Assembly (NCBI GenBank): GCA_050273025.1
Contig: CP158635.1
Location: 6,386,001 to 6,450,000 of the forward strand
Length of the DNA stretch: 64,000 nucleotides
Direction of reading: 5' to 3'
Source: Cenococcum geophilum
Taxonomy: Eukaryota
Shown: piece by piece, positions 3,001 to 52,618 of the stretch
How positions within the stretch are numbered: position 1 is the first letter of the stretch
How the letters are laid out: each line of letters begins with the position of its first letter
Position numbers and translations under genes: made by a program
Notes under the pieces: model-generated
Database searches by the model: none
Told to the model about the DNA's origin: nothing
Seen by the model: only the letters and a program-made list of their open reading frames with translations

Positions 3001-5894
3001 CACCGCTGGCCCTAACGGACTAGTACCCACCCTTTTGGTTTACGGAGCCTACCTAAGGATAAGCAACCTAGGCCCCCCTGCCCCGTCTATTATAGAACGA
3101 GCAGCTATAATACGGAAGGTAATGGCCGAAATAGTTAAATTACGGGCTAAACAAACTATCAATAACGCCCTATACTACTGTAACGGACCTAATACAACCT
3201 TAGTATATAACCTCCCGCTTAACTCTAAAGTCCTTATATGGCGTAAAAGCGGCAGTTGGAATGGACCTTACCGTCTACTAGCCGTAGAAAACGAGACGTG
3301 CTGTGTATAGCTTTCTAGCAGGCCAACTAGCTTTAGAAGCACGTCCGTAAAACCCTACTTTCGGCCCAAAAACACCTATGACGTTGAGCTAGACGAACTA
3401 AAAGCAACTGCTGAACTAGACGAACTAGAAATGACTGCCAAATTAGACAAACTGGAGGCACCCTTGCCTACCCTAAAGGTCCCCTAGAAACCCACTGAAC
3501 CTACTAAACCTGCCGTAAAGCGTGGCCAAGGACGCCCCTATAAGAATCCTATAACGGAGAACTACCTAATCTCCGCAGGCATATCTGTAAAGCAATCTCC
3601 GTCTATGGATATATTAGTTCTAGTACAGGAAACCCCTTTTACGGACTTACGGCGTAAAGAGATTAACGGACTACTTAAAAAGGGTATCTTTGCAATTATA
3701 ACGGAGAGAGACGTTCTGTAAGGCGTCCGTATATTTAACTTACGCTTTATTGACGAGATTAAGCACCCTAGTACTAATAAAGCCTTTAAGAAATTAAGGC
3801 TCGTTATATAAGCTTATAATGACTAGGGAAAGGACCTAGTCCTTACGCAATCGCCTATAATTTAACGGGTCAGTTAACGGATTATACTCGCACTTATACC
3901 TGGACTATAGCAAACTAAATCTATAGCCCTTTACTTACGGGACATCTTATAAGCCTATGTGCAGTCTAATACCTACCTAAGTAGGGATATCTTTATACGA
4001 CCACCCTATGAGCTTAACCTATAACTAGGAATAATTTTATGGGTTATAAAACCTCTTTACGGAGTACCAGAAGCTGGAAACCATTGGTTTAAGACATACT
4101 ACCAGCACTACATCAGTAAACTCAAAATGGAACAGTCGACCTATAACCCTTGCCTCCTATACAGCCCATTAAACGGCCTTGGTATTATTGGACTCTAAAT
4201 AGATAATACCCTCTTCTTAGTAGACTGGATATTTATGGACGCTAAAGAGACTAAACTGCAAGAAGCTAAGTTCCTGGCAAAGCTATGAGAGTAGTTAACT
4301 AAGCAGACTCCAATTAAGTTTAACGGAGGCTTAATTATACAAAAGGGCAACTTAATCTAGCTAACCTAGGAACGCCAAGCTTAAAACCTAAAGCTTATTA
4401 TAGTAAAGCCTATAGACCTTACTAGTTCCCGCGGAGAGACCTGTAAGACTGTAAATATAAAAGACTAATACGCTGTATAGCGTGCAAGAGGCGCCTATAT
4501 TGCCATAGTCTGCCAACCCAAATCTGCCTACGACTTGTCCTTTACGGCCTAGGTAGTAGATCTATAAAAAGAAAATATCAAGCAGCTTAATAAGCGCATT
4601 TAGTGGCAAATTAACAATGTAGTAAGGGGACTTACTTTTGAACCACTAGACCTAAGTTCCCTTAGCTTACTGGCATTTACGGACGCCTCCTTTACTAATA
4701 ACAAAGACCTATTATTACAAATCGGCTTTATAATTGTACTTACGGACCGCAATTAGGACGCAAATATACTGTACTAGTCTTTAATTAAGTGTAAATAAGT
4801 AACCCGTAGTGTACTAGCTTCTAAACTATATATACTAGCTCATAAATTTAATATAGTAGCCGCAATCAAATTAACGGTCTAGAAGATTCTATAACTAGAG
4901 CAGTTACCCCTAGTTTTATGCACCAATTTAAAGTCCCTTTACAACTGCCTAGTTAAACTAGGTACGATATAAGAGAAGAGGCTTATAGTTGACCTAATGT
5001 GCTTATATCAGGCCTACGAACGACGTGAGATTACGGAGGTTAAATGGATTAGCAGCGGAGATAACCTAGCGGACGCCATAACTAAGGCAAAGCTGTGTCA
5101 AGCCCTTAAAACCCTAATTAATATAAATAAGCTCAACCTAAAAGTTATAGAATGGGTAGAACGGGACTAACGGAGTACCTATGGTACGCCTACGGCCCAT
5201 TAGAAGGCCGTATGGCTTATTATATGGCCTATTCTACGGACCGTAAGCTGTTAGGTGGAAAAACGGTGGAAAGCTGTAATAGAACTTAGTGGACTTACGT
5301 GACCTGCTGAATTCTGCCATATTCTGCTATAGTGGTCAAATTAACTAATTACAATTTTCCATGCCGGGTATGGAAAATCGCCATTGGCTTGCTTAGTACT
5401 AGCGCCTTAGCGGCCCTTAAAATCTAACTTACTGCCCGTTGAAAGGCCGTACGGTTTATTTTACGGACCGTAAGCAGGACTTACGGCCAGCTTAAGGTAC
5501 CGTTTGAAAGGCAGCCTAGACGGTACCTTAGGGGAGATTTTCTATGTATTTTCCTTTGTGTTCTATGGTTTTATTAAAGTAATTACGGAGGCTGTACACA
5601 GGTGGTTTTATTTTTTAAGTACTGCTAGTGTATAATTACAGTACCTGTTGTACTAAACGCGTGCTTACGCGTTTACGCGTTTAGTGCACTAACCACTTAC
5701 TTACGCGTCTGGTGCACTTATAAAGCACTAACTAATTAGGGGGGAGGTGCATCAGTATATAGACCACGTAGTCTGCTTTATATAATTGATAGTCACCATC
5801 CAAACAAGCATACGATACTACATGTATTTCGTGCCCGTGGATACGACTTACTCGTGCTATTAAGTTAGTACGAATAATTACTAATTGTCTAATA
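1..5894 (+). mobile_element. Ty1/copia LTR retrotransposon, RIP-inactivated; 5' end lies outside the window
   Basis: Copia domain order on +: gag zinc knuckle KCFMCGKEEC*SIRY (~1582), protease IIDIGAS (~1993), pre-integrase LYRRFGH (~2433), integrase (~2550-3300), RT GVRIFNLRFIDEIK (~3722), RNase H LAFTDASF..NKDL (~4670), ending EWVERD* at 5170. Confidence 0.9.
5629..5894 (+). repeat. Probable 3' LTR of the copia element
   Basis: Starts with TG downstream of the pol stop, contains TATA-like motifs and ends ..TCTAATA (RIP form of ..CA). The partner LTR is outside the window, so the limits are inferred. Confidence 0.5.
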
Positions 5895-5967
5895 TATTAT
5901 CCGCTTTACTATCTTTATAAGTCACTCTATACTATTCTACATTAAGCTTTTACCCGCTTATAAATAT

Positions 5968-8900
5968 ATAGGGTCCCTAACTATAATAGCGGCGCCATAT
6001 TTAGAATCTAGTTAGTACTTAACTACTATAACTAATAAGAACTTATTATAAATAAGTGGTCTAAAGCTGCAGTAAGGACTTATAATTAACAAAAAAATAT
6101 ATAATAAAATCCTCTAATACTATGCTAGCGAAATTAATAAAGCGTCTAGTAGTAAGTTGCTAACGTCCGGACCTATATAAAATGGAGTTAAGCGCATAGT
6201 CTTTGACCTTCTTAACACTAAGTATGGGCACGTGTTTAAGAGATCCGATTTACCATTAGAGTTTAAAGCTTTCGCTATCGCCGCCAAAAAATCTATATAA
6301 CGACACGTAACGACTAATAGACGTGGAGGCGTAGAGGTTATAATAACTGATGCTGTTTAAAAGCGTGGCGCCTTATCTTCTAGAGAGTAGTCTGTTAACT
6401 TATCTAGATTAAGGGTAACCTCCGAGGCTACCTAGGTGCTTGGTAATCTATATATTAAAGCCCTATAACAGCTAAATACTATACCTATACTATTTTATAA
6501 AATAAGCTTTGTTATATATAGTTACCTAAACAAAACGCCATTTACTAGAGCCCCCATTCTATACAGATTTGCATTAAAAACTAAGTATAAGCATCTATTG
6601 TCTGATTCTCTAGAGAAAATTAATATATATTACTATAGATATAATAAGCTATAGGCCGCGATAAGTGAAAACTTCTTAGCGGATAAATATAGGGATGGCT
6701 GGACTATAGTAGATCTAACCACTAGTATACTAATTCTCAACTATATAAACCTAGCATTTATAGTGCTTTCTGTAAAGAAGGCCGGACTTAATATAATTAT
6801 AATTGGAGTTAAAGATCCTAATCGGATTACAAAGCGTAAGAGACTTTATAATTTATAAGATTATATAATATTATATAGAGTTATCTAACGTATATTTACA
6901 GGCATAAGATTTAATGAGGGTGATTCTAAGTCTAACTCTAACCCTAATATTATATGACCGGTACTAACTAGGAGAAGAATAGATATACTTACCCTAGGTT
7001 AAAGTAGTCATAAGCAGTTAACCTTAGAGTCTACGCTACCTATACCTAAGCAGTTAAATCTAAAGCCTATATTAACCCTAAAGTCTACGCCACCTATACC
7101 TACTAATGCATTATTAGCCGTATGGCCGGCTATAATTAAAACTGCTCGTAGCTAGACCCGTAGTAGTAAAGACTAGCCCCTACTAGATAAATTAGAGCTC
7201 TTAAAAGGCGTGGATCTAGATAAAGTATAAACATTTAAGATAATACCATGGGATAAAATAAAAAGATGGTGTGATAAATAGCTAAAGTCTAATCGCAAAA
7301 TGTTTATTAATACATTATTTAAGGATATAAATAATAACCCTAACCTAATTTGTATTGGGGAAATTAATCTTAACTATATATAGGAGCGCCGCCACTTTAA
7401 CGCCTTAATTAACCCTATTTCGACTAACAAGGAACCGGAAGATAAGTATAAGGATAAAATTAAGGAGGTTAATTAGGAAGTTAATCACCTAAAGGACGTA
7501 TAAGAAGCATATATTAACCCAATATTATAGGTAAAGGCGCTATAGTTCCTCTCATTTCCGTTAACTATTCGCAATACTCTTTAAGACGTAACCTTCTATT
7601 TACACAACATAAAAAAGGGTAAAGCTATATAGACATATTAGCTGCTTAGTATTACCTATACTCTTCTTAATTATACAACCCTAGGTAGGACCTTTCTCGC
7701 GGATATAATGGGTTTAGGCAAAACACTTTAAATGCTTTTAATCTAGTACACCGGCGTATTAATAACCAAGATTAACCTTAACTAGCTTAATTAGAAAAAT
7801 CAAAAAGGTAGAGATAAAAGTCTCTACTTTACCCCTAGTATAGATAAACACCTGCAGCCGCCTAACGCCTAATGCCCGAGTTAAATAGATAGCATACTAT
7901 AGTGCTGTTATATTAAGGGAAGTATCGCCAGAAAATTTCTTAACCGGCTAGTAGGACCAACTATATACATTACTAGACAGAATCTACTGCCCTAAGCGGT
8001 TAAAGACGTTAAATTATGGTTTAAGACCTTAGAACTAAATAATTTTATTCCTAGAGGCAAACTATAAGTCCGCGTACGCCATACGGCTTTTATTAAGTCC
8101 AGCATAAAGAAGTATAATTTCACGGATAAAGATAGGGACATTCTTAAACCTATAAAATATAAAGGAGAAGGCGAAGTAGTCTAGTAGAAAATGGACCCAA
8201 GATCGGCTTTATATCTTATAATTACGACCTTACAAACTTAGGCAACAATCTAGACCGCTTAGGAATAGCATAAAACCATTTTTAATCTCTATAGAGATGG
8301 TGGTCCTCATTATATTGTTAGTGGGATTTTTACCAACGAGTTCTATATAGATAGGTTAGAGACAGGTTATTTAATGAAAATCGCCAAATAAGTATATAAT
8401 GATTAAGTAGTATTTCCTTACTTTTAATACCCAGGCCAGTCTTATAAGGACGGCAATGGTAAAATAACCTACTATACCTCTCGACCTTTAGTAGTGTTTA
8501 CTTCCAGTACGCTAACTAGCGAAGGTTTTACAAGTTTAATTCCCGCCTTAGAAATTTTTAGGGCCCCTAATTAGACGGATTCCCTAAATACAAAATTAAT
8601 TAATAATTATAATGTTAAAGCATTAATTAAATATAAAAAGCTAGGAGCAGCTAATTGCTCTTCTCTTCCGAACAAGGTTATTACAGGCTTTAAAGAATGC
8701 TCCTCTTTAATTACAAAGGTCTTAATTATACATAGGATGGGGGAAGACCAATAGTTTAATAGGAGGGTAATTAATAAGCTACCACTGGTCGTCTACTAAG
8801 ACTGCTATATAATGAACGATTTAATATTCAAACCATATATTAAGAAGCTCTGGCGTGGAGCATCCCTAAAAGCTTTTAAACAGCTAAATAAAGCTTTTAG

Positions 8901-9800
8901 ACACTAGAAAGCTAAAAGAAGAAAAAAAGAAGAACCCGTCTTTAATATAGATTAATTTCTAGAGGGAGCCGGTTACTTATTAAAAAATTTTGCTATCTTT
9001 CTAGGCCTAGCTAAGGTAGGAAATAAGTGGCAGAATATATGGTGGAAGGATGAGACAAAAGTTAGAATAAAGCTAAGGTAGATAGTTAACAAGTTCTATA
9101 GCAAAAAATGGGATAAACCTTTAGATAAGAATCTACTTTAGAAGAATTAGAGCATAATTGCTAACTCCAGGAAACTAAATAGAATTATAAAATACGTTAA
9201 TAAAGTACTTAAAAGGAATCCTAATAAGAGACTACTATTTAGTAGTTACGAACTAGCGGCATATACGCTATTACGCCTTATAAGTTAGCTATTAGACTAG
9301 TAGTAAACTATTACTAATAATGTAATATAGTATTTCTATAAAAGGCTTAGCTAGTCTAAATATTTAACTGTTTACCAGATAGAGTCTAGGACATCCCTAA
9401 AAGACTAGAAGGATATCTACAAAGCGTTTTATATTTTAATAGGCGGTTTTTACTAGAATAATATGGTCTAGTTTTTTATTATTAACTAAAGAGTTAGAGG
9501 AGAGGGTCTAAATTTGGTCTCTACGCATAGAGTTTATCTACTTAAACTGGCGACAATAGTAGATATAGAGGTGTAAGTGTTCGGCTAAGCTGCTAGATCT
9601 AGATAGCTAGCGCTAGTAGTTATTACGTTAACAACGTATAGTACGGATAAGTGGAACCCAATTAATATAGTTATATTAGCGAGGCGTATAATAACTAAAA
9701 GGATAATAATTAATAAGTTCTATAAAGTATTTAAAGCCTAACCTACTTAGTAGGCTAATAATAATATAATAGAAATAGCGTAGCTAGTGCAGTTAGAGTA
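5968..9800 (+). pseudogene. SNF2-family (SF2) ATPase/helicase, ~1,250 codons, RIP-inactivated
   Basis: All motifs lie in one frame: Q motif TY*LLSI (~7633); motif I GRTFLADIMGLGKTL (7684-7728); motif II GIFTNEFY = DEFH (~8323-8346); motif III SSTL = SGTP (~8503); SRKL = SGKL (~9166); 51-nt intron 9280-9330; motif V RGEGLNL (9496-9516); motif VI *VFG*AARSR* = QVFGRAARSGQ (9574-9606). Confidence 0.88.
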
Positions 9801-10669
9801 GCGACCCCCTGTAATAAGAGTATGTCTTAGCATAATGTATATATATATAGACAATATGCAACTATTTAATATTTTGTAATATATTATCTTAGTATTAACT
9901 ACCTTATAACTAACTAAACCTTAAAAAGTTTAAATTTTATCCAGATTAATATTACTCCAGCCATTAACTACCTTAACACCTATTAAGTAATCTAGCCTAT
10001 AACCCTACTAACTCTTATTCCTAATATACATTAACAATTCCTATTAAGGTATATCCTTTCTACTAATAGACTATATATATATGCTATCTTTATTATTCTA
10101 AAAGCCTAATCAGTATATAAGAGGATCATCCCATAACTAAAGCTCCCTTTATATCTCGAATTATTATAAGAAGTAAAACAGCATTAGAACAGATAAACTA
10201 ACATTTATAACTACCGCTTTTGTCTGCCGATTATACAGTTATAGCGCATATACGTAGTTGTCTGCTATGAGGGGGAACCGTTAGTAGTGGTTTTTGAGAT
10301 CTCACTATCCCATATAAAACTTTCACTACTGCCTATAACGTCTTAATAACCACTAGCTCCTACCTATACGCTATATAACGTCTATATAAAATCCCTAATA
10401 GTAAAGAAAAGCGTACCCTAATTATTCTATTTAATCTACCTCCTGCCTTTTTTTATTAGTGTAAGATATTGAATTAACCTATAATATAATACTGACTGGA
10501 ATAATTGGCAAACCTAGCTCCGCTAGACAAATATGCTTAATTATAAGGACTAAAACCCCATTACTATTAAGCTTATTATGCTATAAAATAAAAGGGCTAT
10601 TATTAATATTGGTATGTTTTAAAGGTACTTTATTAGCCAGCACTAACAGATATAAGTTAATGGACTATT

Positions 10670-11203
10670 TACCACTTTATGTTTAATGGTTCTAAGAATA
10701 ACAGGGCAAAATATACTATTATTCGTTATGCTCTTACCAACTATAATATTTAATTTATTATAGGCTAGAAATTTAACCTTAAAGATAAGCAAAAGGCAGA
10801 CTTTTAGGATATATTAGATATGTTACGGACGAAACCTTTATATAACCTACCCGCATTAGAACACCTTAATAGCAGTACTATACTATTAGATTTCGCTATT
10901 AGGCATTAGTAACCGAGCAACCTTAAATCTTCCCCTCGTTGCCCAGCCCTAAGCCTTATTACGTTGCTAAGACTCATTACATCATTGAGTTTTATTGCAT
11001 TGCCGCTAAGCCTTATTACGTTACTAAGCCTTATTACATTATTAAGTCTCATTACATCGCCAAGCCTTATTACGTCGCCGAGCCTTATTACATCGTTAAG
11101 TCTCATTATATTGCCGAGTCTTATTACATCGCCGTTAAGCCTTATTACGTTATCGAGCCCTATTGCATCGCCGCCGAGCCTCCTAGCCAGATTAAGCAAT
11201 TAG
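10670..11203 (+). pseudogene. RIP-decayed unknown gene fragment ending in a Ser/Pro-rich repeat tail
   Basis: De-RIPed frame reads ..IIRYALADYDIQFIMGWKFDLEDEQKADFWDILDMLRTKP.. and runs into SPSPIT-like repeats. I recognise no family. Confidence 0.35.
10947..11180. repeat. 18/21-bp tandem array, about 12 units (consensus ~GCCGAGCCTTATTACATC)
   Basis: Units are directly visible. Unit lengths are multiples of 3, which explains the overlapping ORFs listed at 10906-11307. Confidence 0.9.
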
Positions 11204-12260
11204 ACGTCGCGTATTTAACTCCTAGGCATAGCGGGTTCAATTCCCACTCGTCGCGCATTAAAAATATTAAAAATATTAAAAAAGAAGGTTGTTTTCTATT
11301 AAATTAGGCGTTAGTAAGGCTCTAAATTAAGCTCATATTTTCGTATATGTCCCGCAACGCCTAAAGTCATATATTTGACGAAATCTCAGCACTATATACT
11401 AAGCATATCGGCTCTTCTATGTTAAGTTTTAATTATATTGGGCTAGCTCTAAATTATAGCAAGAGGCAGAATGTACTATACTACTATGTTATAAAGACTT
11501 TGGAATATAATCTTATAAATTTAACTAAATTATAACCCCTTCCTAAACCTCACGATTAAACTAGATCCTTAGGGAGAGATCCCTATATTAAATCTTAGGG
11601 AACGTTCGGTTGCGACTTTAGATTAAATCTAAAGGCCGTAGAATATATCTAAGCTAAAGCTTAAATCTGATTCTAACGCGATTATTTAGTCAATCTGGCG
11701 ACTTTCTGATCCGAAAGCTCCTCTAAATCGGCAAGTGCGTTAAATTCGCAAGCTATACCGTATATAGAATCTAAATTTATAAATATAGGGTATCTCTATT
11801 ACTGTAGTGGCTACTACAGTAACGGGGGCGCCATATTTCAGTGAGTAGTTAATCTGCTATATCTCTGCCACTGTAGTAGCAAGGCACCTTAAGTTCAATA
11901 CCACGCCAAGCATTATAACTTTCTTGCAGTAACTGAGCAACCCTAAACTAAAGCGATTGTAGAACTTACTATGCTACTACGCCGTAAAGGCCCTTAGTTA
12001 TAGTCTTATGAATTTAATTAAAATATAAACACCTTCCTAAATCTAACGATTAAATATTTCTATATGCAACACTATGCCAAGGATTATAATATAGATTGCT
12101 TAGATATGGCTTTACTATAATATAACGGCTCTACGCTAATCGATTGATCTATAAGAGATTTAGGTAGTAAAATTACTGCTAAGAGTTACTGCCTAGATCC
12201 TGGCCGATAAATACCTATAACTATAATCTTAGTAAATGGCAAAAAGTATATAGCAGTACC

Positions 12261-12588
12261 GAGATAATAGCAGGATAATATAAGATAATAATAGGATAAT
12301 ATAATATAATGGTAGGATAATAACAGGATAATATAATATAATAGTAGGATAATGATAGGACAATATAATATAATAGCAGGACAATAGTAGGATAATGTTA
12401 GGACAATATAATATAATGGTAGGGCGATAATAGGATAATATAATATAATGGTAGGATAATGTAATATAATAGTAGGATAATGTGATATAATAGTAGGATA
12501 ATATAATATAATGGTAGGACAATATGGGACAATATAGGACAATATGATATAATGGTAGGATAATAGCAGGATAATATAAGATAATATA
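12261..12588. repeat. Degenerate 10/11-bp (21-bp higher-order) tandem array; pre-RIP unit ~ATGGGACAAT/GGTGGGACAAT
   Basis: Repeated GGATAATATAATATAATGGTA. The least-mutated units (AATATGGGACAATATAGGAC) are at ~12,520-12,545. Confidence 0.85.
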
Positions 12589-12744
12589 AAAAAATAAAAT
12601 ATAAGATATAAAAAGAGGGAGCCCTAACACTTCCTCTTCTTTCTACTTTTACGGCCCTGGCGCCTAATATAGTGTAATATTGTCTATCCATATAAGCGAT
12701 AGTATTAAGACGGTTAGAAGTATTAGGAAATTTTATAAAGTATA

Positions 12745-13905
12745 TATTACTTTAAGTAATATACCTAAATAACTAGTCTAGTGTATGGTTTGTATAACAT
12801 ATAATAATAACGGGGGGATCTCCTATTGTTATATTGCTAAGCAACGCCTTTAAAGCCACGTTTTTCTAGTGCCTAGAGGTCTTTGGATTATTATAAGACG
12901 CTTTATAAGAACTCGTTTTAGTATAGTGGCTTAAGATTTGTTAAGCCCTATAGTAGTTATATCTAACCAGTCTTTAAAAATGTAAACATTCTTAAATAAG
13001 GAAGTATTCTTAATAGCTATAATTAAACTAAGATCCGTATAAGGCTTATTTATGACGTATTATAGTACTTTAATATTCTATTAAACTTAAATAAGGTGTT
13101 TTAATAACGGGAATCTATTAGTGGTTAGATATCTTCTTATTTAGAAAACATTACACACTTATAGCTCTCTTATTAGCTTTTGTAATGCTAATATAGTATA
13201 ATAACTAACTTTATAAAATCTAGTTTATTCCTTAACTATCGTCCATAATACGGATAAGTTAATCTTAATATCTTTAGGTCTTAAAGAATAAGTTAACCTC
13301 TAGAGGATTCTGTTCTAATGCGGCTAATAGTCTCGCCGCCACTATTACGAGTATATATTTCGTTTGAAAATTGTTAGTCTTAGGAGTTAAAGCAACTAGA
13401 GACCTAGTGATTAGTCTTTTTAACTAATCCTAATAGATTATCTTCCCTACTCTCCTAAGTAAGAACGCCACGCAGATTACTAGCCCTTAAGGTGAAAATA
13501 TTACTAAGCTAGTATAGACCTTGTAGATGTTAGGGGATAACTGCTTTAGAATTATAGCAGGCTTACCTGTTTATATATACCGACTCCATTACTATATCCA
13601 GATTCCAGCAAACTAAAAAGGGTTTGCTCTAATTTGACCTACTACCTCTCTTAACGGTTTAATCGTGTCTTCTTTTAAAAGATTGTATTAAGAGCTTAGA
13701 TACTCCTTTATTAAGCCATATAGACCTAAGATCTTATTAACTTATAGTAGAATATCTCCGTTTTTGCTAATGATATTCTGGCCCTTATTAGGGATATTAA
13801 GTATTTTGGTAGAGGTTAGGACCTCTAATCGTACTAACTAGGCTCTACTAGTTATAGGCTGACTAGGCGTCTTAAAGTATTAGTAAATATAGTTACTAGT
13901 ACATA
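12745..13905 (-). pseudogene. 5' fragment of an Hrr1/SAD-3-type (UPF1/ZNFX1-like SF1) RNA helicase, RIP-inactivated and truncated
   Basis: De-RIPed minus frame: W..EVPTSAEIL..NKISGPYGSIEEYLSSQYDLLKEDTIKPLREVV, intron, VAFSLGRVGKIIRWDQSKRLITGSLVALTP..VAARPL..LEQNPPEVDLFF..EERTGFYE..HTMLALQKLMREP, intron, FPLSKHL..RLAIIQGPPGTGKT (Walker A 12,859-12,885)..DPPVII.CHTNHALDQLFRHI. Similarity stops before the DEAA motif. Confidence 0.85.
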
Positions 13906-14279
13906 TTAAGCTGCCTAGAAAGGATTTATATATATAGAACTATAGCACTATAGCCTAGAGGCTGTATACGCATTATTATACGTAATATAATATAATAAAT
14001 ATATAAAAAATATATAAAAAAAAAGTATTGATAAATCTGGGTGCTGAATTGAGCTTATAGACGGAGACGTAAAAGGAATAGGAGGTTGTAAGTCTGGGTG
14101 GTATAGTGGGTGAAGAAGCGTTTGCTAATACGCTTATTTATTTCTTATAAGACATTTAACTAATTATTTTATATAATAACTAAACAATATACCTGTCTAC
14201 ATAATTCTATACATTAGTCTTGGCGCGTAATTAAGACGTCTTTCCTACCGTACCTCCCCTAACGCTTCTAGAATTATAG

Positions 14280-16083
14280 CACTAATAATAGACCTAAGCT
14301 ATGACACTAAAGACACTCTTAAGCGAGATCTAGGGCTTATGAACGAATAATACAATACGATTTACTATAATGTTGAAATCAAAATGTCGACGCGTGGGCT
14401 CCTTAGATAGCTACTACGCTCCCTTATAAGTAAGGCATAAATACGGCAAATATCAAACGAAATCTCTAATGAATTCCTATCTGTGTTTCTAGGTTTACCT
14501 AAGAACCTACGTACTAAATATGTTAAATAGCTTGCCTAGCGCTATAGCTATAACGCGATGCGTTGAACAAACAAAACGGCTCCTACTAGGCAAATTATAA
14601 TAGGCAACTTAGTACTCCTACACTCCGCTATTGCATATTATCTACTAGCCGGCATACTAAAGGTAATAAGGTAGGAGGGAATACTAAGGTTATATAGAAT
14701 AATAATAATACTAATCCGGTAGGTAGCTAATGAAGAGCTAATAATTATCCTAATCCAAAAGCTAGCGACTAGTAAGAATAACGCTCTAAATATACACGTT
14801 AATAATCTAAGCTTTAATACATTTATAAACATGCTAGGCTAGGATATTAACTTTAACCCTAAGAGCGAAACGCTTTGCTACTATGTTGGCGATAAAATAG
14901 CTAGAGGATGAATTCAGCTTATAAATAAAGAGAAATAGCGCAGTATAGTTAAGGATATATTTCTATAAGAAATAGATAGGTTTTTATTTATAATAGAATA
15001 AAGAAGAACAAGTAGGTTACTGCTTAAAGTTAAGCCAGCGTCACTAACTCGTATTTATAGTCTGCGCTACTAGCTAAGAACAATATAATTACTTACCCTC
15101 TATTTCCGTACCCTTGCCTTTACTAGACAACTCGTACTCTATATATATAAGAATAGGTAGAACTAGTAAACAGGTTAATACTAAGGTAATACTTAACCTA
15201 TAGCTGTCCTAAAAAACCTCTCCTAGTTAAAAAAGAGCCCTTACTCTACGCCTTAACCCATAATAGAAAAGGCGAAGGTAACTATAACTATAGCATGGAT
15301 TATGCGCCTTAAAGCCACTACTTTATCTAGAATACTTACTAGTTTAATAGATCACTATATATAAAGGTAGACGGCTTAATAGAGCCCCTTAGTGTACTAT
15401 TAGGTAAGGGAGTCTTAGAACAATATAACCCGAGATATTCTTATAACTTATCCGGCATTCTTAAAACGCCTAAGGGGATTAGACGATAAAGCCTAAGGTT
15501 TATACCCGTTCTTTTTAGTAAACTTATTAGGGTAATATATATTAATACCGTCCCTAGTTCACTCTTAGTATCTAACACCTAATCCTTATATCTATACTTG
15601 CGCTTTCCTTACTATTTTACTAAATTTAATTACTATTGCGATATATATATAGGGGATAGGTTAGGCTTACTATAGGCTAGTGGGGTTAACAACGCGGAAG
15701 AATAACGTTGGATATTTATGGTAGAAATACTAGGTATTGTATAAGGGTGTAAAATATGGCGATATAACTATATAGAAGTGTAATTGCTATCCTATATACC
15801 GCCTATGCCTACCCTAGTATTATCTACACTAGCAAGCTATATAGATAAGGTAGATAAGCTTTACTTTAAGCGCGAGACGGGTGTTAAACCTAGTATAGGT
15901 GGACTGGAATAAAGTATAGGATCTAAAAGCCAGCGCCTTAGGTAGGTAAAGTGGTTTAATAAGGTACCTCCCTATTAAATTTAGACATAAGCCTTACTAG
16001 CCTACTACTTTTATTGCCGGGATTAACGTTTAACCTTTTATATATATATACCATATCTATTAAGGGATATACTAATAGAATAA
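14280..16083 (+). pseudogene. One or two RIP-decayed genes of unknown function
   Basis: Long protein-like + frames (~14,280-15,060 and ~15,294-16,083) whose stops are RIP-type TAA/TAG, e.g. LKRDLGL.NE.YDTIY.NVEIKMSTRGLL. No family recognised. Confidence 0.4.
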
Positions 16084-16706
16084 AATAGTTTCGCGTATAA
16101 TAGTAAATAGTATTAGACAATCTTTAACTATACAATAATATTTTCTTAACTACTAACTTAACGCGAGTTAATAGGTTATAGTCGCGGCTTAACCGTAACC
16201 AGTTAAAACTAGCAGCTAATTATAATAAATACACCCCTATTTAAGTTATTTGCAAGCACTATAGCAATAATACTCCTACTAATACTGCTATTAGTCCAAT
16301 ATATACCATACCAGTATATATTTTTTTAAGTTATTAATCTATATACGCCCTAGATATTACAAAAACAGCTATAAGGTAACCTATTCTAGCTATAAGCTAT
16401 ACCTTCTACTAACTAGGCAAATATAGGAGTGTTACTATAGCAGGTAAACGTAAAAATGTGTTATTAAACACTTAAACTAGTAGCAAGAACCCTACTTTAA
16501 GTTAATATAAAATAAGGAAATAAGGATAACTAGTATAATTAACCTTATGTCTTTACCTAGCCTACTACTAGGAGTTACCTATGTCCTAGCTAACGGAAGG
16601 AAGAATACGCTAATAGAGAATAAGTATATAGAACTTAGCTAGGATAAGTATATAGAACCTAGCTAAAATAAGCACGTAGAACCTAGCTAGAACGAGTAAT
16701 ATTATA

Positions 16707-17012
16707 ACTCTAGTCTAGTTATATCTAGGCGTAAAGAGGAGCAGGCACGTAATAGACCCCGTTAATATTAAATATAATATATTAAGCTAGCTAATAATGT
16801 ATAGAATATATATAGCCGCCTCCGGCTTAAAAGGGTAATATCTAATAATAAGAATAGCGACTCTAGTCTAGTTATATCTGGGCGTAGAGAGAAGTAGGTA
16901 TATAATAGACCCTATTAATGTTATATATAATATATTAAGCTGGCTAATAATATATAGAATGTATATGGCCGCCTCCGGCTAAAAAGGGTAATCTTTAATA
17001 ATAAGGATAGTA
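16707..17012. repeat. 153-bp direct tandem duplication (2 copies)
   Basis: ACTCTAGTCTAGTTATATCT.. starts at 16,707 and at 16,860; the copies differ mostly by transitions. Confidence 0.9.
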
Positions 17013-18744
17013 ACTATAAGTCTACACCTACTTCTTCTATAAAACGACAGCGACTAAATATTAATAAATCTACTAAATCTATTAATGATCTAGTAGTAGA
17101 ACTAGCTCAGTTAAAGATATAAAGTCCCAATTTTTTAGTTAAGGTAGGTTATACCTTTATACATAACCAGAGTCTAACTATAATACTTAATAGTCTCCTC
17201 TACTATTTAGCACTTGGCGAGCCCTAGTAAATAAAATACTCTCTTTACTATTTAACCGCCCACCGCTATAAAAAGCAGCATCTTTATAATATACCTCTGG
17301 CTCTTAATAATTATGTATTAGTTTAAAATACTCTCTTACGCGCCTAATCCGTACCTTACCGCGTAAATAATTGCGTACTAGTTTAAAATACTCTTTCGCG
17401 CGCCTAATCTAAACCTTATTGCGTAAATAACTAATATTTAGCTTTATATTCTCCCTAGTAAGCCATGTTTGCCTAAACCCTAATATAGCTTCGTCTATAA
17501 AATAAGTAACCTCCCTCTAATATAGAGTACACTAATCTAGTGTTCAATCTAAAGGGGACCTAGATAGCACTAGGGAAAGTAAGGATAAGTTAGACTATAA
17601 CGATTTTAACCTAACTGCCATAATACGGGTAAGAGAAGAGTACCTCTAAACATTATAACGGCGATATATAAAAGAAAACCCACCTAAGAGATATAAGCCT
17701 ATATTTACGCTTTATAGGTCTATTTTATTAACAAGGCTAGTAACTAACTCTAGGACTTATAACGGGTATCTTATTAACCTATAGTTTAACCGCTTTCTAA
17801 GCCTTATTAAGGATATAATAAAAAAGGCATAGTTAGAAGCTATTTTAAAGCAGCCAAAAGTAGTATAAAAAAAAGCTAATCGTATTTCTGACCCGGTGTC
17901 CACTTATAAGGTATCTATATACTAGAAATATTGTATTAAATTATCCACTAATAATCTTAATATTATATATAGCTATTTAATGTAATAGGGAACTTTAGGA
18001 ACTACGTAATTATAAAGGCTTATATAGTTATAAGGGAGGTATATAGGCTAGGGTTTAACAACGCGCCCAAACTAATCGTAGAACTACTAACTAATTATAA
18101 TTTTATTGCGCTAGATTATATAAAGGTATTTTGCCCGTGCTATTTAGTAAAATGCTAATAAAAGTTAATAGCTAAGTAATAACCGCTTCCGTTCTAACGT
18201 AATAGTTGCTAGCATAGCTAGTATATTTTACGGTAAAGGAAGAAACGGCCTTACCTAATTACCCTACTCTTATAATATGTTTAAAAAGCTTACTAGTAAT
18301 ACTATTGCTTTTATTTTAATAGCAATATATTATACAATTAGGGAGTATAGAACTAGGTCTAAGGGAATAAATAACTTTTATAGCACTATTATTAGCGGTT
18401 AGTATATATCTGGTATTTTACTACCTATTATTATTCTCTAACCCGTTATAGAAGCCTATGCTAACCTCTTAGGCAGCTAAAACTAGATATTTAGAAAACG
18501 GCAATTTAGAATCTAGCTGCGGCTTTAGCCCGTAGTTATTAAATATACTATAGGCCTAATACCAGATTAATTAACTATAGAAATTATTAAGGACCCGTAT
18601 AAAGATAACCTTAACAACCTTATAGCGGATCTAAGCAATAATATAAGAGAGAGGTTCCTTATAAGCCTTAGCAATAATAAAACTGACGTAATTATTAACT
18701 TAGGCTATTTATTAGTGAGCCGGGCTATACTATCTAATTTACTA

Positions 18745-18875
18745 AGTTTATCTTAAAGGGAAAGCTCTAGAGTAGGCTAGACTAGTTTACTAAGTCTATC
18801 CTAAATAGAGAGCTCTAGAGTAGGCCAGACTAGTCCACTAAGTCCGTTTTAAAGGGAGAGCCCTAGAGTAAGCTA
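18745..18875. repeat. 42-bp tandem repeat, about 3 copies
   Basis: The unit ~AGAGCTCTAGAGTAGGCCAGACTAGTCCACTAAGTC recurs at 42-bp spacing. Confidence 0.8.
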
Positions 18876-19597
18876 GAAAATCTAGGGCCCTACTACTACT
18901 ATAATATTTACTAATTTAACTTTTAGAACTAGCTAAGTTTGTTAAATTTAGCAGAATATACATCCTCTGCCCTAGTATACCACTTTATCCTAAATATAGG
19001 AACCAGCAAGCCTAGGCTAGAAAGGTTTAAATCTAATAAGTTATTTATATAATTTAAGCAGTACTATAGCCTTGCAGAGAATAGCTATAGCTAGTATAAT
19101 AACGGAAAAGTAATATTAAATTTAATTAAGAATAAGGAGTAGTATATAAAGTTTATAATATATACTCTGGACTCTAGTATAGAGGAGCTGGTAGAGTTTT
19201 TAGTAGAAAATTAGGTGTAGGACTTTTTATACTCTCCTATAGGATGACTGCGGCTTCTTTATTATATATACTAGCTCTTAATCTACCTTTCTTTTAGCCT
19301 ATATCTGCTACTCTTAGTAGCTACTTTTTAGCTATATATATATGCTATACTAGTAAAGCTAAATACTTATAGTATATTATTATCGTAGGGAGAGTAGGAA
19401 AGGTCTTATACTTTTAGAATATATTATAAAACAGTTGGGATATTATATTAAATTGTCTAAAATAATATAATAGATTATATAAAAAAGTGTATATAATTTG
19501 CCTTGCTAGCCTTATAAATAGCTTTAAAGTAGCCTTTGTTTATTATCTAAAATATACTGTTAGTATAAAAGAGGTAGATAGCTCTAAATACAATTGT

Positions 19598-19667
19598 GGT
19601 TGCAGGTTGCGTGTAGGTTGCGCGCAGGTTGCGCGCAGGTTACGCGCAGGCTGCACGCAGGCTGCGT
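19598..19667. repeat. 11-bp GC-rich tandem array (GGTTGCGCGCA), about 5-6 units
   Basis: Directly visible. It marks the right edge of the multigene cassette and is only weakly RIP-mutated. Confidence 0.85.
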
Positions 19668-20269
19668 GTCAAAAAAACACGACATAGGCTAGTCGGTTAA
19701 GTTGCTAAATGCCCTCAACTGCGCGCCAATTGCGTCAACCACCAACCATTGAGGCCATTGGTAGGGTACCATATTTTGCCGATAATACTTTTTATTTATA
19801 ACTAATAAAAGCTAAATTCTACCTTTTATTAGTAATATATAGAAATAGGTAGTTCTATATTAGTTTTATTTTGATATTTTTATATAGGTAATATATAAAG
19901 TAATTTTCTAATTTTTCTTCTACTTTATACCTTTAAAGCCTATTTAATCCTCTACCATTAATAATATGTTATTCTTTTCTTAACGATAATTTTAACTTAT
20001 TGCTTTAGCTTTACTAAATAAAGAAGCGGGCTTAGAAATAACTTAGCGCGTCTTTAATCCTAAATTTCCACTTCTAGACTAGGTTAATAGTAGATCTTAA
20101 TACTATTAAGGATCTTATTAAGGAATAGCATGTAGAGATAACAAGATTAGGTGCTACTATTAAGGAGTTTAAGGAGTTTAATAGGTTTATTATAGTATAT
20201 AATAGAAACTTATAAATCTAATTCTATTTTAATATATCTATCCCTTAACCCGCTAACGTTTATAAAGTA

Positions 20270-21273
20270 AGCAGTCTATATAGAACACTAAGATTAGAGT
20301 AACGCGTATAGGCCGCATAGATTTAATTAATATAAACCATTAAGTATGCCTTCTAATTGTACTTCTAATAATATAGACCTTGTTAAGCTGACTCAATATA
20401 ACGTTTAACTAAATCGTATTTTAAAAAATCGTCTCCTAGAGCCTTAGCCATTGCCTAATTTCAACCCTCTTTATATTAGCTATATACTCCTAAGCACGAC
20501 AATTTTAATACATTGATTTGGTAAATCCTAATCGATAATATGTAGACGAATTTTGGCGGATTAAGGGATAAGGGTAATAGTCCTACTCGGCCCTATATAA
20601 ACAGCGCTTAAATAGTAGCTTAAATTCTAGGTAGGGTACCTATCTTAATCTTATACAAAGAGCTATTACTATCTTCTTAATTTTACTAATATTAACTAAG
20701 CTAGAACTAGTATTTTCTAGCTTAAAGTATAAAAGGATACCTAAAAGGATATACTTAAAGGTAATAATAGTAGAGATAACGGAGTATATAAAGAGCTAAG
20801 TAAAGATAACACTAGAGATAGAGTAGGCTCCCTTAAGCGGCGTTTTTAGGTAGAGTTACTTTATTGATAAAGTAGTATATAGAGATAACTCTAAGGGCTA
20901 AGGGTTCACTAGAAGAGGTTCTAAAGTAATATTATATATTTATGGCTAGCTGCAGAGGTATTAAGGGACGTAGAAGAGAGTCTCCTTTATATTTAAGGTA
21001 TTTATCTAGCTAATTTAATACCTAAAGTAGTTATAATATAATATTATATATAACTAATAGCGTATAAGTTAAAATCTACCTCTCTACTATTAAAACTTAT
21101 TAAAATATTAAAATTAACTTAAAATAGAGACCTATTTTAGTTTCTATATTTCTATATATTTCTATCATCTATTAGAAAAAGTTTCCTTTTACTATTTATC
21201 TAATATTGACTTCTAAGTTAATAGAAACTATTCTACTCTTTACTCTTTTATTCTCTATTTTATATATAGTATC
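20270..21273 (+). mobile_element. Internally deleted DNA-transposon relic, possibly piggyBac-like
   Basis: ATGCCTTCTAATTGTACTTCTAATAATATAG at 20,346 is homologous to 60,569. The MPSNRTS..PLP.F.PL N-terminus and a decayed Cys-rich tail resemble fungal piggyBac transposases. Termini not resolved. Confidence 0.35.
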
Positions 21274-21810
21274 TATAAGGTATAACGGAACCTTATAGCA
21301 GGAACTACAATAGGCTCATTATTAGGCTAGGTGTGTAGGTGATATAAGTTAAAGTCAACAATAAATAACAACTAGTGGAGTGGTTGCCTAATAGATTAAC
21401 TCTAATTGTATTCTAAAAATCACTATAAGGAAGGAACTATTTAGGTAGGGACTAAGGGTCCTTAAATACACAATCGTACTCCTATAAAATCCTTCTTATA
21501 CGTAATATACGTCTTATATATAAGGTACGTAAGTTCCTCTTATTCCCCTTATTTAATATATAGCATATTATATAACCTTAATTACTATTCCTTATTATAT
21601 AGTTCTATTGGCTCTATCCTAGACCATACCTAAATTAACCAACTAGCTTCTTCCGACTCCTCTCTAAGTAGTTATAATATTATACTTAAAGCGTCCGTAA
21701 CACTATCTCCCTCCCTTTTATCTTTGTCCTTAAAGATTTAAAATATCTCTAAGTTGTTTACTAGAGGTATAATATCCATTTAATTAATTTGGTTAATATC
21801 TTTACTTATT

Positions 21811-22484
21811 ATACCTAAAGTAATTTCTTCTTTACACGCCCAACGTCGTGCTCGCACTATTACTGCAATATTATCTCTTAGCGAGATTATACCGTCTTCG
21901 TGTTCGCGTTGTTTAAAAGAGGGGTTAGTTTATATTGCGTTGGCGAACCTATCTTTATAATAACTATTCTCTTACTTAAAGTGCACTAAAGCGAATATTT
22001 ATTTATCCTATAACGTTTACTTTACTTCTAATGCTAAATATACGTAACCTATTACTCTTAATAGTTATCTAGTTCCCTAATTAATTTGTCTTAGGGTCTC
22101 GTATTTAATCTACTGCTATATAGCTAGATAGTAAACTGTCTTAAGCCCTTACTAAGTTAGAACGTTCTTGGGATGCGGAATAAAAGGCCTTAGATACTCG
22201 TCTGCTCGCTTGCTCCGTCTTAAGAAGGTTTATAAAAAGGTCTGTTTTAAGGAATAGAAACTTATAAAATAGGGTCTATAGGAACTTAGTAATAAAAGAA
22301 CGGATTCTCTTTTAATAGAGAAGGAAATAGATCTAAGTAGTTCAGCAACTGCTCTTCTTAGGTCCCCTTTAGGTAACTTATTCTTTAGTAATCCTTCTTT
22401 ATTAATACTACCTAACCTAATTTCTTCCGATACTCCTATACCTTTCCTATAGTATTCTTTAAATTTTTTAGTAGTTTTTAGGTA
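21811..22484 (+). pseudogene. Antisense accessory gene of A1 (Cys6 cluster + coiled coil, one intron)
   Basis: De-RIP reading: MPKVISSSHAQRRARTIAAILSLGEIMPSSCSRCSKEGLVCIAL..SSCSECTKANI.SSCDV.SASDAE, 55-nt intron, WSRIQSAA.RLDGELSQALAELERS... The end is approximate. Confidence 0.7.
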
Positions 22485-24260
22485 GTCTTAGTATAGCCTA
22501 TCTACTTAACCTTATACCATATTTTATTATTAACGTCCTTATAACTAACGATCTTTAAAACTTATTATTTATCTTCTTCCTATCCTCTATATGTATCTAC
22601 TTTATAAACCGGTGGCTTAATATTCCTGTATACTAGCTCTAGTATTGCAATATGCTATATAGGGTAGATCTTTATTTTGGCTAGTAGGTTTAACTTAAAT
22701 ATAACCAGTAAAATTCTCTATATAATTTTAAAAGGTTTTAGTCTAACGTAGTCTAACTTTTTACTTAGTTATCGACTCTTAAAATTTTTGTATAATAGCT
22801 ATACTTTATCTCCCTCCTTAAGATCTAGTCCCTTAGATTTCTTATTATTATAGTACCTTTTTATTCTCTCTTATACTTTCTTTACTAATTCTATAAGGTC
22901 TATATAAAGATTTATTAATATCTTTATCCTTTCTTTAGCTGTGCTACTTATTTTCTTCGCTTATTATAGTAATAACGATATTCTTAGCTTATACCCGTAA
23001 TTTGCCTTAAATAGTAATATACCTATTCCTTCTTAAGGTGTTGCATTATATATAAACTATATAACTAGTAATAATAATACCTAATTATTCTATGCGTAAT
23101 TAATATAGTGCCTTAAATACTATTCTAGCGTCTAATTTAATCTTTCTATTTAACCGTCTGTCTGCGGATAATATGCGGTAGAAGTTACTGCTCTAACTCC
23201 TTATTCCGCTAAGAATACCTTCTAAAATGCTACTATGAATCTTAGATCTCTATCCAATATAATCTTACTTAGTACTCTATATCTTATAAATACTTCTTTA
23301 ATATAGATTCTAGCGACATCTTCTACTAATATTTCTTCCGTACATGCTATAAAGTATCCCTACTTTATAAGCTTATCTATTATTACTAAGATCGCATTAT
23401 AATTTTGTTTAGTAATAGGATCTTTTAATTTTAGTAACTTAATAATAAAGTCCTATAATATAACCTCCTATAGTCTCTCTGGTATTTTAATAGGTTATAG
23501 CCCTCTATATAGCTTATACCTTATTAGTTTATTTCTTTAGCAATCTAAATATTCCTTAGTAATTTTTCGCGCTAAGCCCTAGATTTTATTAATAATATAC
23601 TTATTACGGACGCTTTAAGTACAATATTACGACTACTTGGGGAAGAGTTAGAAGAAGCTAGTTAGTTAATTTAGGCACAGTCTAGGATGGAGCCGGTAGA
23701 ACTATATAACAAGGAATGGTAACTGAGGTTATATAATGTGCTATATATTAAATAAGAGGAATAAGAGGAACTTACGTACCTTATATATAAGACGTATATT
23801 ACGTATAAGAAGGATTTTATAGAAGTACGGTTATGTATTTAAGGACCCTTAGTCCCTACCTAGATAGTCCCTTCCTTATAGTAATTCTTAGAATATAATT
23901 AGAGTTAATCTATTAGGCAACCACTCCACTAGTTATTATTACATTGTTAACTTTTATACTTGCATTTCCTATACACCTAGCCTATTAATAAGCCCATCGT
24001 AGTTCCTACTACAAGGTTCCGTTACACAATTACTACTACGGTTATAGTATTAATATAGAAAGTCAAATAACATGCCACCAAAAGCAGCTACCACAACGCT
24101 ATTAACGGCGGCAACTACTTTAAGGTTAAGTAACGACACTAGTATAATAGACACTAACTTATAGCAACCTATAACGGTTAGACAGCTATAAGAGATAGTT
24201 AACTAGTTAACAGAAAATAATGCGATGTTAGAAAATAGGATTAATAGAATAGGCGCAGTA

Positions 24261-51600: not shown

Positions 51601-52618
51601 CTAATTTCGCTTCTCAATAGGTTTTACACCTTTATGGATGGCCGCAATTCCTCCCGTCAAGTCCTCCCATCCCTTACCCGGCACCAGGAATCCAGCGTCC
51701 TTTATCATGTCTCTGAATTCAGTCTGGCTGGGAAATCTCTCGATACTCTCGACTAAGTACTGGTAACTATCCCTATCGCCAGCTACCAATTGTCCGATTA
51801 ACGGAATAGCTCCGAAGCTCCAGTGCTTGTACAATGCGTCAAATAGTGAATTATTAACTTTGCTGAACTCGAGGCACGCAAACACACCACCCGGTTTTAG
51901 GACGCGGAATGCCTCGCGTAAAGCGGCGTCTTTATTGGTGAAGTTTCGAATGCCGAATGCGACGGTGTAGAGATCGACGGTGTTATCAGGGACTGTCGTG
52001 AGATCCTCTGCGTTGGCTTCCATGAATGTTAGGCGTGGTGAGCGGGCATATGGTGTTTCTAAAGCCCTTTTTCGACCCTCTGCTAGCATATCGGGGTTGA
52101 TATCGGCAACAGTGACGCGGGTGTGGACGTCATTGTTGATATTTGAGGCATGATCAAGCATGCGGAAGGCGATGTCGCCAGTGCCACCAGCAATATCAAG
52201 AATATTCCAACCTTGGGCCATAGGCGAAGGGAATGTGAGGGGATTGGAGCCAGGGTTGAGGTTGCGGACGAAGTGATCTTTCCAAAGGCGATGGATTCCT
52301 AGCGACATGAGATCATTCATAGTATCGTAGGAAGAAGCGACTGAGGAGAAGACGGCGCCGACTGAGGTATTATTAGTCACTGTATAAGCAGAGATGGACT
52401 TATAAGCTACCCTTCTGCTCCTTCAAGGCCTCCGCTATTGTCTCGAATCCAAAGTGTGTTGTTTTCGGCGCATCTTGACCGGGTGGAGGCGAGGTGTTCT
52501 GCTGTTGGGCATTCTGTATTGAGGAAGAGAAGCACCGGTATGGTTCTCTCCTCGCGGTTGGCCATGCGCTCCGAAAGAATTGACGTCTCGCAAGAAGTTT
52601 CGCTGTGGCGCCACTCAT
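51601..52618 (-). CDS. COQ5: Mitochondrial 2-methoxy-6-polyprenyl-1,4-benzoquinol C-methyltransferase (UbiE/COQ5)
   Basis: Exons 52,618-52,411 and 52,361-51,601 with a GT-AG intron at 52,410-52,362. Motifs THFGFET, VFSSVASSYDTMNDLMSLGIHRLWKD, LDIAGGTGDIAF, YTVAFGIRN, SYQYLVESI. Arg/Ser-rich presequence. Confidence 0.97.

Follow-up and report, generated by a model that had tools for sequence, protein, structure and literature searches.

A RIP-mutated fragment of a ZNFX1/Hrr1-type helicase gene inside a high-copy repeat of Cenococcum geophilum

In a stretch of 64,000 nucleotides of the Cenococcum geophilum genome (assembly GCA_050273025.1, contig CP158635.1, positions 6,386,001 to 6,450,000 of the forward strand; hereafter the window, whose own numbering is used throughout), the minus strand carries a DNA-level copy of part of a helicase gene of the ZNFX1/Hrr1 type that forms an integral component of a repeat unit of high copy number and bears the C-to-T and G-to-A changes of repeat-induced point mutation (RIP). 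An earlier note, made from the letters of the window alone, had drawn attention to 12745 to 13905 as an N-terminal helicase region that runs through the Walker A and TNHALDQ motifs and keeps two introns, all of which we find on the minus strand; the helicase fragment itself stands, but its coordinates do not, as the captured piece reaches 14145 and ends at 12752. The features of this piece are given below as read against P0004, a helicase of Glonium stellatum with 1162 aa, against two full-length host genes (L017 and L029), and against further copies from metagenome contigs, which form a long lineage that includes the window copy and a short sublineage.

12752 to 14145, minus strand: captured ZNFX1/Hrr1-type helicase piece, RIP-mutated (alignment with the host genes, tblastn with P0004, Pfam PF25396)
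14139 to 14141, minus strand: former start codon, now ATA (host AGAAATGAATGAG aligned with window AGAAATAAATAAG)
13874 to 14032, minus strand: secondary insertion of ~148 nt at codon ~39/40, absent in both host genes
13520 to 13566, minus strand: intron 1, retained, 47 nt, GTAAGC...CTAAC...AG (not represented in P0004; same place in the intact host gene)
13281 to 13283, minus strand: site of the 2-nt deletion (frameshift) of the long lineage, the bases being kept in only 7-8 of 41 spanning copies
13115 to 13162, minus strand: intron 2, retained, 48 nt, ATAAGT...CTAAC...TAG (16-codon gap against P0004)
12859 to 12885, minus strand: Walker A remnant QRPLGTRKT, from GPPGTGKT (tblastn and alignment)
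12776 to 12796, minus strand: TNHALDQ remnant YTNHTLD, directly followed by a stop (match to ZNFX1 in the Protein Data Bank (PDB), tblastn and alignment)

A search of a protein collection with the fragment returned one match among 3524 candidates, P0004 (E 4e-56), and tblastn with this protein placed its residues 41-407 on window 13879-12698 in three high-scoring segment pairs (HSPs; joint E 3e-80), with no second helicase HSP elsewhere in the 64-kb window. Pfam recognizes the ZNFX1 domain PF25396 in the stop-tolerant minus-strand translation (E 2e-11; 44.3 bits, with the cut-off at 27), and human ZNFX1 in the PDB matches the window fragment weakly, in two collinear places that include the TNHALDQ motif. 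No open reading frame (ORF) crosses 12745-13905, and the frame of the main alignment has 35 stops in 466 codons, consistent with RIP. Alignment of the copy with the host genes sets the limits of the captured piece at 5 nt before the ATG and at codon ~388 (window 14145 to 12752), which amounts to ~1.25 kb or the 5' third of the host gene, with codons 1-39 at 14141-14033 split from the remainder by the ~148-nt insertion. Host homology stops at codon ~388 (...CATGTTGCTCAA) and not at codon 407, no microhomology is evident at either junction of the captured piece, and the SF1 core beyond this codon, where the part with Walker A and TNHALDQ (AAA_11) is followed by AAA_12, is missing in the fragment and present in L017 and L029. 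Because both introns are kept, and at the host positions, the capture must have taken place at the DNA level and not by retroposition, as the earlier note had argued. At the 5' splice site of intron 2, which reads GTAAGT...CTAAC...TAG in the host, the host GTAAGT has become ATAAGT in the window through RIP.

Among solved structures, P0004 is closest to ZNFX1 (9q9z, 1.8e-122), followed by UPF1 (1e-34) and by Aquarius, Sen1 and DNA2 (1e-34 or weaker). With its first 500 residues as the query, 1425 of the 8000 candidates that were scored came out as matches, and the best 120 of these 1425 relatives, by appearance about one per dothideomycete species, all contain PF25396 as P0004 does, many of them being named [quoted passage not shown] (RNAi, RNA interference) by JGI or NCBI. 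These matches support the assignment of the source gene to the ZNFX1/Hrr1/SAD-3 helicase family, with a putative orthology to Schizosaccharomyces pombe Hrr1 and Neurospora crassa SAD-3 suggested by the names in the sources. The Hrr1/SAD-3-type helicase proposed before is in agreement with this at family level, both by the nearest solved structure and by the names of the relatives, and the best matches are of the ZNFX1/Hrr1 type, not of a different SF1 helicase family. [quoted passage not shown]

Metagenome contigs were searched for a degenerate pattern of 54 letters taken from the fragment, and this gave 48 loci, of which 41 lie in one metagenome, five in a second, one in a third and one in another record. 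The earlier note had proposed a count of copies and a search for the host locus, and both are provided by this set: 46 loci are truncated, RIP-mutated copies that cover P0004 residues ~41 to 314-388, while L017 and L029 are full-length helicase genes covering residues 1-1162. Dozens of contigs, some as long as 200 kb, contain these copies, and 31-33 of the 48 loci share sequence on each flank of the fragment. Parts of window 11500-15500 occur in 20 DNA runs from nine studies, with a root metagenome among them as would fit C. geophilum, and the contigs of three runs (X1, X5 and X6), mapped on 12641-22500 at a likeness of at least 80%, gave the following summed depths.

Fragment bins 12641 to 13627: X1 16,912-26,769; X5 655-946; X6 12,182-15,336
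Rest of the unit to 19878: in X1, X5 and X6 similar to the fragment bins
Adjacent unique DNA, 19879 to 20207 and 20866 to 21194, equally AT-rich: X1 122-130; X5 5.2-5.5; X6 2.4-12

Summed contig depth does not equal copy number, and the ratios are to be read as orders of magnitude only, 10^2 for X1 and X5 and nearer 10^3 for X6. In X1 and X5, the depth of the fragment exceeds that of the neighbouring unique DNA by a factor of ~120-220, and the summed depth in X1 lies at 12,000-27,000 over most of 12641-19878, with peaks of up to 240,602. Position 13560 is covered by 29-43 different contigs per run; example mapped pieces have single-copy depth and 13-16% differences, and ~97% of the listed variable sites are transitions. 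By depth ratios, 46 further copies and common flanks, the fragment lies inside repeated DNA as previously claimed, of which it is an integral part, and it is not a unique, neutrally decaying duplicate unlinked to a repeat. Two regions, bins 13628-13956 and 19221-19878, have ~10x the carrier depth (X1: 240,602; 59,779-178,850) with no counterpart elsewhere in the window, and they could reflect low-complexity effects or commoner sub-repeats.

The repeat that carries the fragment is present in the window as a single copy:

5874 to 19783, no strand assigned: one copy of the carrier repeat with its left side cut off (recurring endpoints, depth)

Homology endpoints recur across many loci at 5873-5878 and at 19783-19786, so that the carrier unit measures at least 13.9 kb in the window; it measures at least 15.5 kb in fuller copies, and other copies extend at least 1585 nt to the left of 5874. 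Its right terminus is sharp at 19783 (...GGTACCATATTTTGCCGAT), with 16 sequences that end in ...ATATTTTGCCGAT and then run on into as many different flanks (16). A left terminus could not be found; five loci gave two flank types, and L031 has an inverted arrangement. No transposase domain in the frames searched with Pfam, and no terminal inverted repeats (TIRs) or target-site duplication (TSD) was found in the carrier, and a long terminal repeat (LTR) structure was ruled out, with the right-terminal 984 nt occurring once per copy and the ends showing no similarity within the window. The carrier is therefore described as a large repeat with one defined terminus and no assigned superfamily. The absence of all these hallmarks and the unsettled left end, with only two flank types among five loci, would fit a block that was never mobile and merely spread a broken helicase pseudogene by segmental or tandem amplification. 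We give this explanation almost no credence in view of the 16 sequences that stop at the same right-terminal base in many contigs, each with a different flank, of the dispersal of the copies over dozens of contigs, and of the other repeats that are inserted in individual carrier copies.

For a comparison of the captured pieces, the window copy and 42 metagenome copies were aligned with L017 and L029. Of the 46 truncated loci, four (L009, L015, L039 and L042) were excluded for large insertions or distant partial HSPs, and the misaligned L016 (67% identity, 109 transversions) was kept in the comparison of identity and 21-mers and dropped from the analysis of fixed sites. Three lesions break the reading frame. 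The ~148-nt insertion is flanked by 11-nt direct repeats (14032-14022 and 13884-13874) and is found, varying by segment, in 19-32 of the 30-32 copies that span it. The 2 nt at ~13282 are missing in all copies of the long lineage and kept by eight loci that are exactly those of the short sublineage. A deletion of 13 nt at ~12861, right after the GKT codons, is the small frameshifting deletion that had been noticed before and affects 33 of 34 spanning copies, the 34th being the misaligned L016. Since they are common to all or nearly all copies of the long lineage, these frame-destroying lesions predate its amplification, and an additional insertion of 1 nt at ~13612 was found in the window copy alone among the aligned copies. 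The dominant-negative protein that the earlier note had envisaged is excluded by the shared loss of frame, together with RIP stops in every copy. As a side observation, the ~148-nt insertion has the look of a small element that entered the piece and duplicated its target site prior to the amplification of the family.

The short sublineage comprises nine loci (L002, L004, L019, L024, L032, L033, L041, L044 and L045) that have codons ~59-314 only, a piece corresponding to window 13829-12967 to which a short sequence similar to window ~10254 is attached. Of these nine loci, eight span the 2-nt site at ~13282, with the 2 nt kept in 8/8, and three match another part of the carrier at only ~64% identity. 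This composition suggests that the short sublineage may be an older or chimeric relative in which the fragment was kept, too.

Between the copies and the host gene, identity amounts to 75-84%, and the divergence of the copies is dominated by changes of the RIP type: 8106 (86%) of 9391 differences between copies and host are C>T or G>A, compared to 784 reverse transitions and 501 transversions (109 of them from L016). The fragment of the window has a TpA/ApT index of 1.64, a (CpA+TpG)/(ApC+GpT) index of 0.44 and a GC content of 0.31. At 66 sites, or ~5%, a C>T or G>A change is fixed in at least 95% of copies, from which it follows that RIP began before the last common ancestor of the sampled copies. 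When only C>T and G>A changes are allowed, 85% of 366 codons of the fragment are compatible with the Glonium protein, compared to 71-74% for the next three orthologues and 61-69% for 23 others. For a housekeeping gene in the window, the best matches after those to itself reach 62-64% and fall, among named species, in Pleosporales, which places the fungus in Dothideomycetes, with Glonium stellatum as its closest named relative. A de-RIP consensus of 43 copies is identical to host gene L029 at 1126 of 1251 sites, and the 125 differences comprise 81 C>T or G>A changes, 37 reverse transitions and seven transversions. Because the consensus is so close to L029, the donor of the captured piece was the helicase gene of this fungal lineage itself.

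Both L017 and L029 align to the whole of P0004 in four HSPs, with stops only in the HSP that reads through intron 2, and have normal base composition and dinucleotide indices (GC 0.45-0.49, TpA/ApT 0.41-0.96, (CpA+TpG)/(ApC+GpT) 1.12-1.52). The host has T or A where most copies have C or G at only 15 sites, six of which also vary from one host allele to the other; these 15 sites lie in the contexts CC (5), CT (4), CG (3), CA (1), AG (1) and TG (1), i.e., no CpA-biased damage was found in the captured interval of the host gene. The host gene is thus intact and not RIP-mutated in metagenome contigs that carry the same repeat family. An exposure of the host gene to RIP through the fragment, another role considered in the earlier note, has left no trace in either full-length gene. 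The two alleles lie in gene-dense DNA of normal base composition and differ at 24 of 1669 alignment columns, so at least two lineages of this fungus are present in the metagenomes.

Despite the divergence of the copies, 21 of 43 have at least one exact 21-mer in common with the host gene (173 21-mers in all), with exact matches of up to 39 nt; in the window copy, no 21-mer is shared and exact matches reach 20 nt at most. In RNA run X21, 358 reads of 9.29 million records mapped on the stretch, of which 289 are less than 90% alike and 342 lie only partly on it. Their depth on the fragment is 1.75-3.4, mainly with the first mate on the plus strand, and there are none on the minus strand in the two bins of 12970-13627; these reads are too weak to separate expression of the copies from host mRNA. 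If the fragment were still active today, its residual exact matches could yield small RNAs that tune the helicase mRNA, as the shared 21-mers and the few RNA reads on the fragment, in sense orientation, would allow. We consider such an activity very improbable because the window copy shares no 21-mer and because the reads are few, match poorly and might originate from host mRNA. In addition, AT-rich, RIP-mutated regions are usually silent.

Setting out from the capture, the copy number, the shared lesions, the RIP in the copies and the intact host gene, we infer an order of events in which the fragment was carried passively. Before its main amplification, the element would have acquired ~1.25 kb of the ZNFX1/Hrr1/SAD-3-type helicase gene of its host at the DNA level. 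The captured piece would then have been broken by the insertion at codon ~40 and, in the long lineage to which the window copy belongs, also by the 2-nt and 13-nt deletions. The family would have amplified to many tens, probably hundreds, of copies with the piece as a mere passenger, and RIP, setting in before this spread was over, would have mutated all of the copies. The fragment makes no protein. We therefore think it likely that the fragment is a fossil, passively carried by a RIP-inactivated high-copy repeat while the host gene elsewhere has stayed intact. Several points weigh against this view. The intact host gene is known from metagenome contigs and not from the genome of the window itself, and the carrier has no transposase, TIR, TSD or left end, so that "transposon" here stands for a sharp terminus with varied flanks and for copy number. 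Moreover, the cargo comes from a silencing pathway, which is rare among about 10^4 genes, and the functional capture of such a gene has a precedent in TART-A/nxf2 (bioRxiv 10.1101/2020.02.20.957324). Both sublineages keep the core of the fragment (codons 1-388 in the long and ~59-314 in the short one), possibly through retention rather than by chance, and the 21-mers and the 39-nt match described above make RNA-level cross-talk physically possible.

These points lead to the question of a past counter-defence at the RNA level. A fresh fragment, 95-100% identical to the host gene, could have given rise to small RNAs that hit the host helicase mRNA and weakened silencing, so that the family spread until RIP later erased the effect; we judge this unlikely. 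In this reading, the multi-copy element would itself have been a target of quelling-type or meiotic (unpaired-insertion) silencing, and the weakened silencing would perhaps have helped other elements, too. It is compatible with the Hrr1/SAD-3/ZNFX1 type of the captured gene and the requirement of SAD-3 for MSUD, and with the finding that the fragment predates the main amplification and sits in essentially every copy (by equal depth) and in both sublineages. In Neurospora crosses, an unpaired MSUD gene indeed lowers MSUD, which has been called "silencing the silencer" (PMC10411587), and TART-A elements with nxf2 sequence make PIWI-interacting RNAs (piRNAs) antisense to the nxf2 transcript (bioRxiv 10.1101/2020.02.20.957324). 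On the other hand, the 66 RIP sites were already fixed in the common ancestor of the copies, so identity was dropping during the spread, the host gene bears no sign of conflict-driven change in the captured interval, and gene capture by transposons is common and mostly neutral. Furthermore, we know of no demonstration of MSUD in this class of fungi. We are yet more doubtful about the specific scenario in which the 5' Hrr1/SAD-3-type fragment served as bait, with small RNAs of the host turned against its own helicase mRNA lowering RNAi or meiotic silencing, the family reaching ~10^2 or more copies and RIP disarming it later. A counter-defence of this kind would predict small RNAs that are confined to host codons 1-388.

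The fossil passenger that we favour resembles known cases of capture followed by RIP. In Pseudocercospora fijiensis and relatives, a hAT transposon took up histone H3, which was multiplied into hundreds of copies, with RIP in all but the original (Dhillon et al. 2019, PMC6710886). Like the helicase fragment, this is a host gene in a DNA repeat of Dothideomycetes with AT-rich blocks, RIP-inactivated copies and an intact original. In contrast to a housekeeping coding sequence, however, the cargo is here the 5' third of a silencing-pathway helicase gene with introns, and its carrier, with at least 13.9 kb, exceeds the hAT element by far in size and is not assigned to a superfamily. The study on H3 also argues that RIP signatures may be present in the functional H3 gene (PMC6710886), whereas the original helicase gene shows no such signature. 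In Zymoseptoria, the genome-defence gene dim2 was likewise amplified in dothideomycete repeats and then RIP-mutated, including the original (PMC6710886; PMC8016269); in Z. tritici, this inactivated the original dim2 and cytosine methylation was lost, whereas in our case amplification concerned nothing but a truncated fragment, and the full-length gene has remained intact.

With TART-A/nxf2 of Drosophila melanogaster (Ellison et al.), the carrier shares that a transposon holds a piece of a host gene for small-RNA silencing; this case serves as the mechanistic model for the counter-defence reading. Antisense piRNAs against nxf2 were shown there and a counter-defence was proposed, while the captured helicase piece is known from DNA copies that RIP has degraded to the 75-84% identity given above. 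If an insertion with a sad-3-like fragment were polymorphic, it would constitute the kind of unpaired MSUD-gene DNA that was studied in Neurospora, but the effect reported there came from deletions and ectopic copies and not from a 1.25-kb 5' fragment or RIP-diverged DNA (PMC10411587). Fungal Helitrons similarly capture pieces of host genes as DNA with introns in large non-autonomous elements (PMC4289320, PMC5148889). Of their hallmarks, one terminus of the carrier is readable as A|TC... on the minus strand, while a 3' hairpin/CTRR end and a RepHel remnant were not found.

Capture by a transposon followed by RIP is thus already known from H3 and dim2, and the captured helicase of RNA silencing appears to be unreported. 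We found no literature report of such a capture, and a search for transduplication, RNAi and counter-defence led to Drosophila TART-A only. No literature was found that pairs Cenococcum with "heterochromatin assembly 1", and the main text of the 2026 C. geophilum genome paper contains none of the terms "helicase", "RNAi", "MSUD" or "gene fragment", though its supplement could list the family. The C. geophilum genome has been published as rich in transposable elements and RIP-mutated (PMC12910237). If the fragment ever acted via small RNAs, it would be a natural fungal case of a transposon that turns host silencing on itself, and this would bear on how a repeat-rich, RIP-mutated genome filled with repeats. 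If it acted specifically as bait, it would constitute a fungal counterpart of TART-A/nxf2 with a possible part in the genome-wide expansion of repeats. A fossil fragment would still be of use, since its two sublineages, taken together with the intact progenitor, provide a dated marker of the sequence in which capture, amplification and RIP took place.

Beyond the helicase piece, the carrier contains few recognizable features:

7700 to 9560, plus strand: long degraded frame with SNF2-like motifs (GLGKT, TGTP-like, GEGLNL...RxGQ-like; by eye), unconfirmed
12186 to 12640, no strand assigned: minisatellite that adjoins the captured piece at its 3' break and belongs to the repeat unit (self-similarity)
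18160 to 18405, plus strand: DUF6532 (PF20149) coding remnant (E 2.4e-4, 21.5 bits, below the cut-off of 24)

A Pfam search of 13880-21300 in six frames gave only this weak match to DUF6532, and the plus frames of 6001-11100 and the minus frames of 5874-12750 gave nothing outside the helicase piece. The same domain exceeds the cut-off of 24 in L012 (17833-18933; 27 bits) and L018 (4478-5578; 31.2 bits); the only mention of DUF6532 that we found in the literature is in a Ganoderma genomics study. The SNF2-like motifs at 7.7-9.6 kb are visible by eye in the translation of the window and in the de-RIP consensus, though Pfam gave no support. A phmmer search of 1.84 billion representatives with the window translation found no intact relative of this frame and returned 28 fragments of 41-161 aa. 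The window-anchored de-RIP consensus of the carrier has 13,912 nt, a GC content of 0.449 and ORFs of up to 286 aa, and the mapped element copies contain no ORF of at least 180 aa save for a frame in L027 that covers the minisatellite. Matches to window 12001-12500, the region of the minisatellite, occur in about 33 of the 48 loci, and further minisatellites or tandem duplications lie inside the carrier at 10949-11170 and 16707-17024.

The window is AT-rich from ~6 to 47 kb (GC ~0.3) with strong RIP indices, and normal in the gene-bearing parts at 52-56 kb and 60-64 kb. At its left end, positions 1-5873 are taken up by a RIP-mutated copia/Ty1-like element in which gag zinc-knuckle, protease-like and integrase-like motifs can be seen by eye, and this element adjoining 5874 may be the insertion that truncated the carrier copy. 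Visible repetition within the window is limited to 21.2-45.1 kb, and nothing around the fragment repeats within the window. There, 21200-45100 contains several nested or inverted copies of one LTR retroelement family of ~7.3 kb with an LTR of ~425 bp and 83-91% mutual identity, the summed depth of which (21195-22500) is ~0.6-1.9 million in X1 compared to ~122 for unique DNA. At the right end of the window, ORF translations alone point to three genes without RIP mutation:

51601 to 52422, minus strand: COQ5/UbiE-type methyltransferase
53606 to 54418, plus strand: branched-chain 2-oxoacid dehydrogenase E1 alpha
61586 to 63999, minus strand: Doa4/UBP-type ubiquitin hydrolase with a rhodanese domain

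These ordinary genes are set apart by small islands of AT-rich DNA at 56-60 kb.

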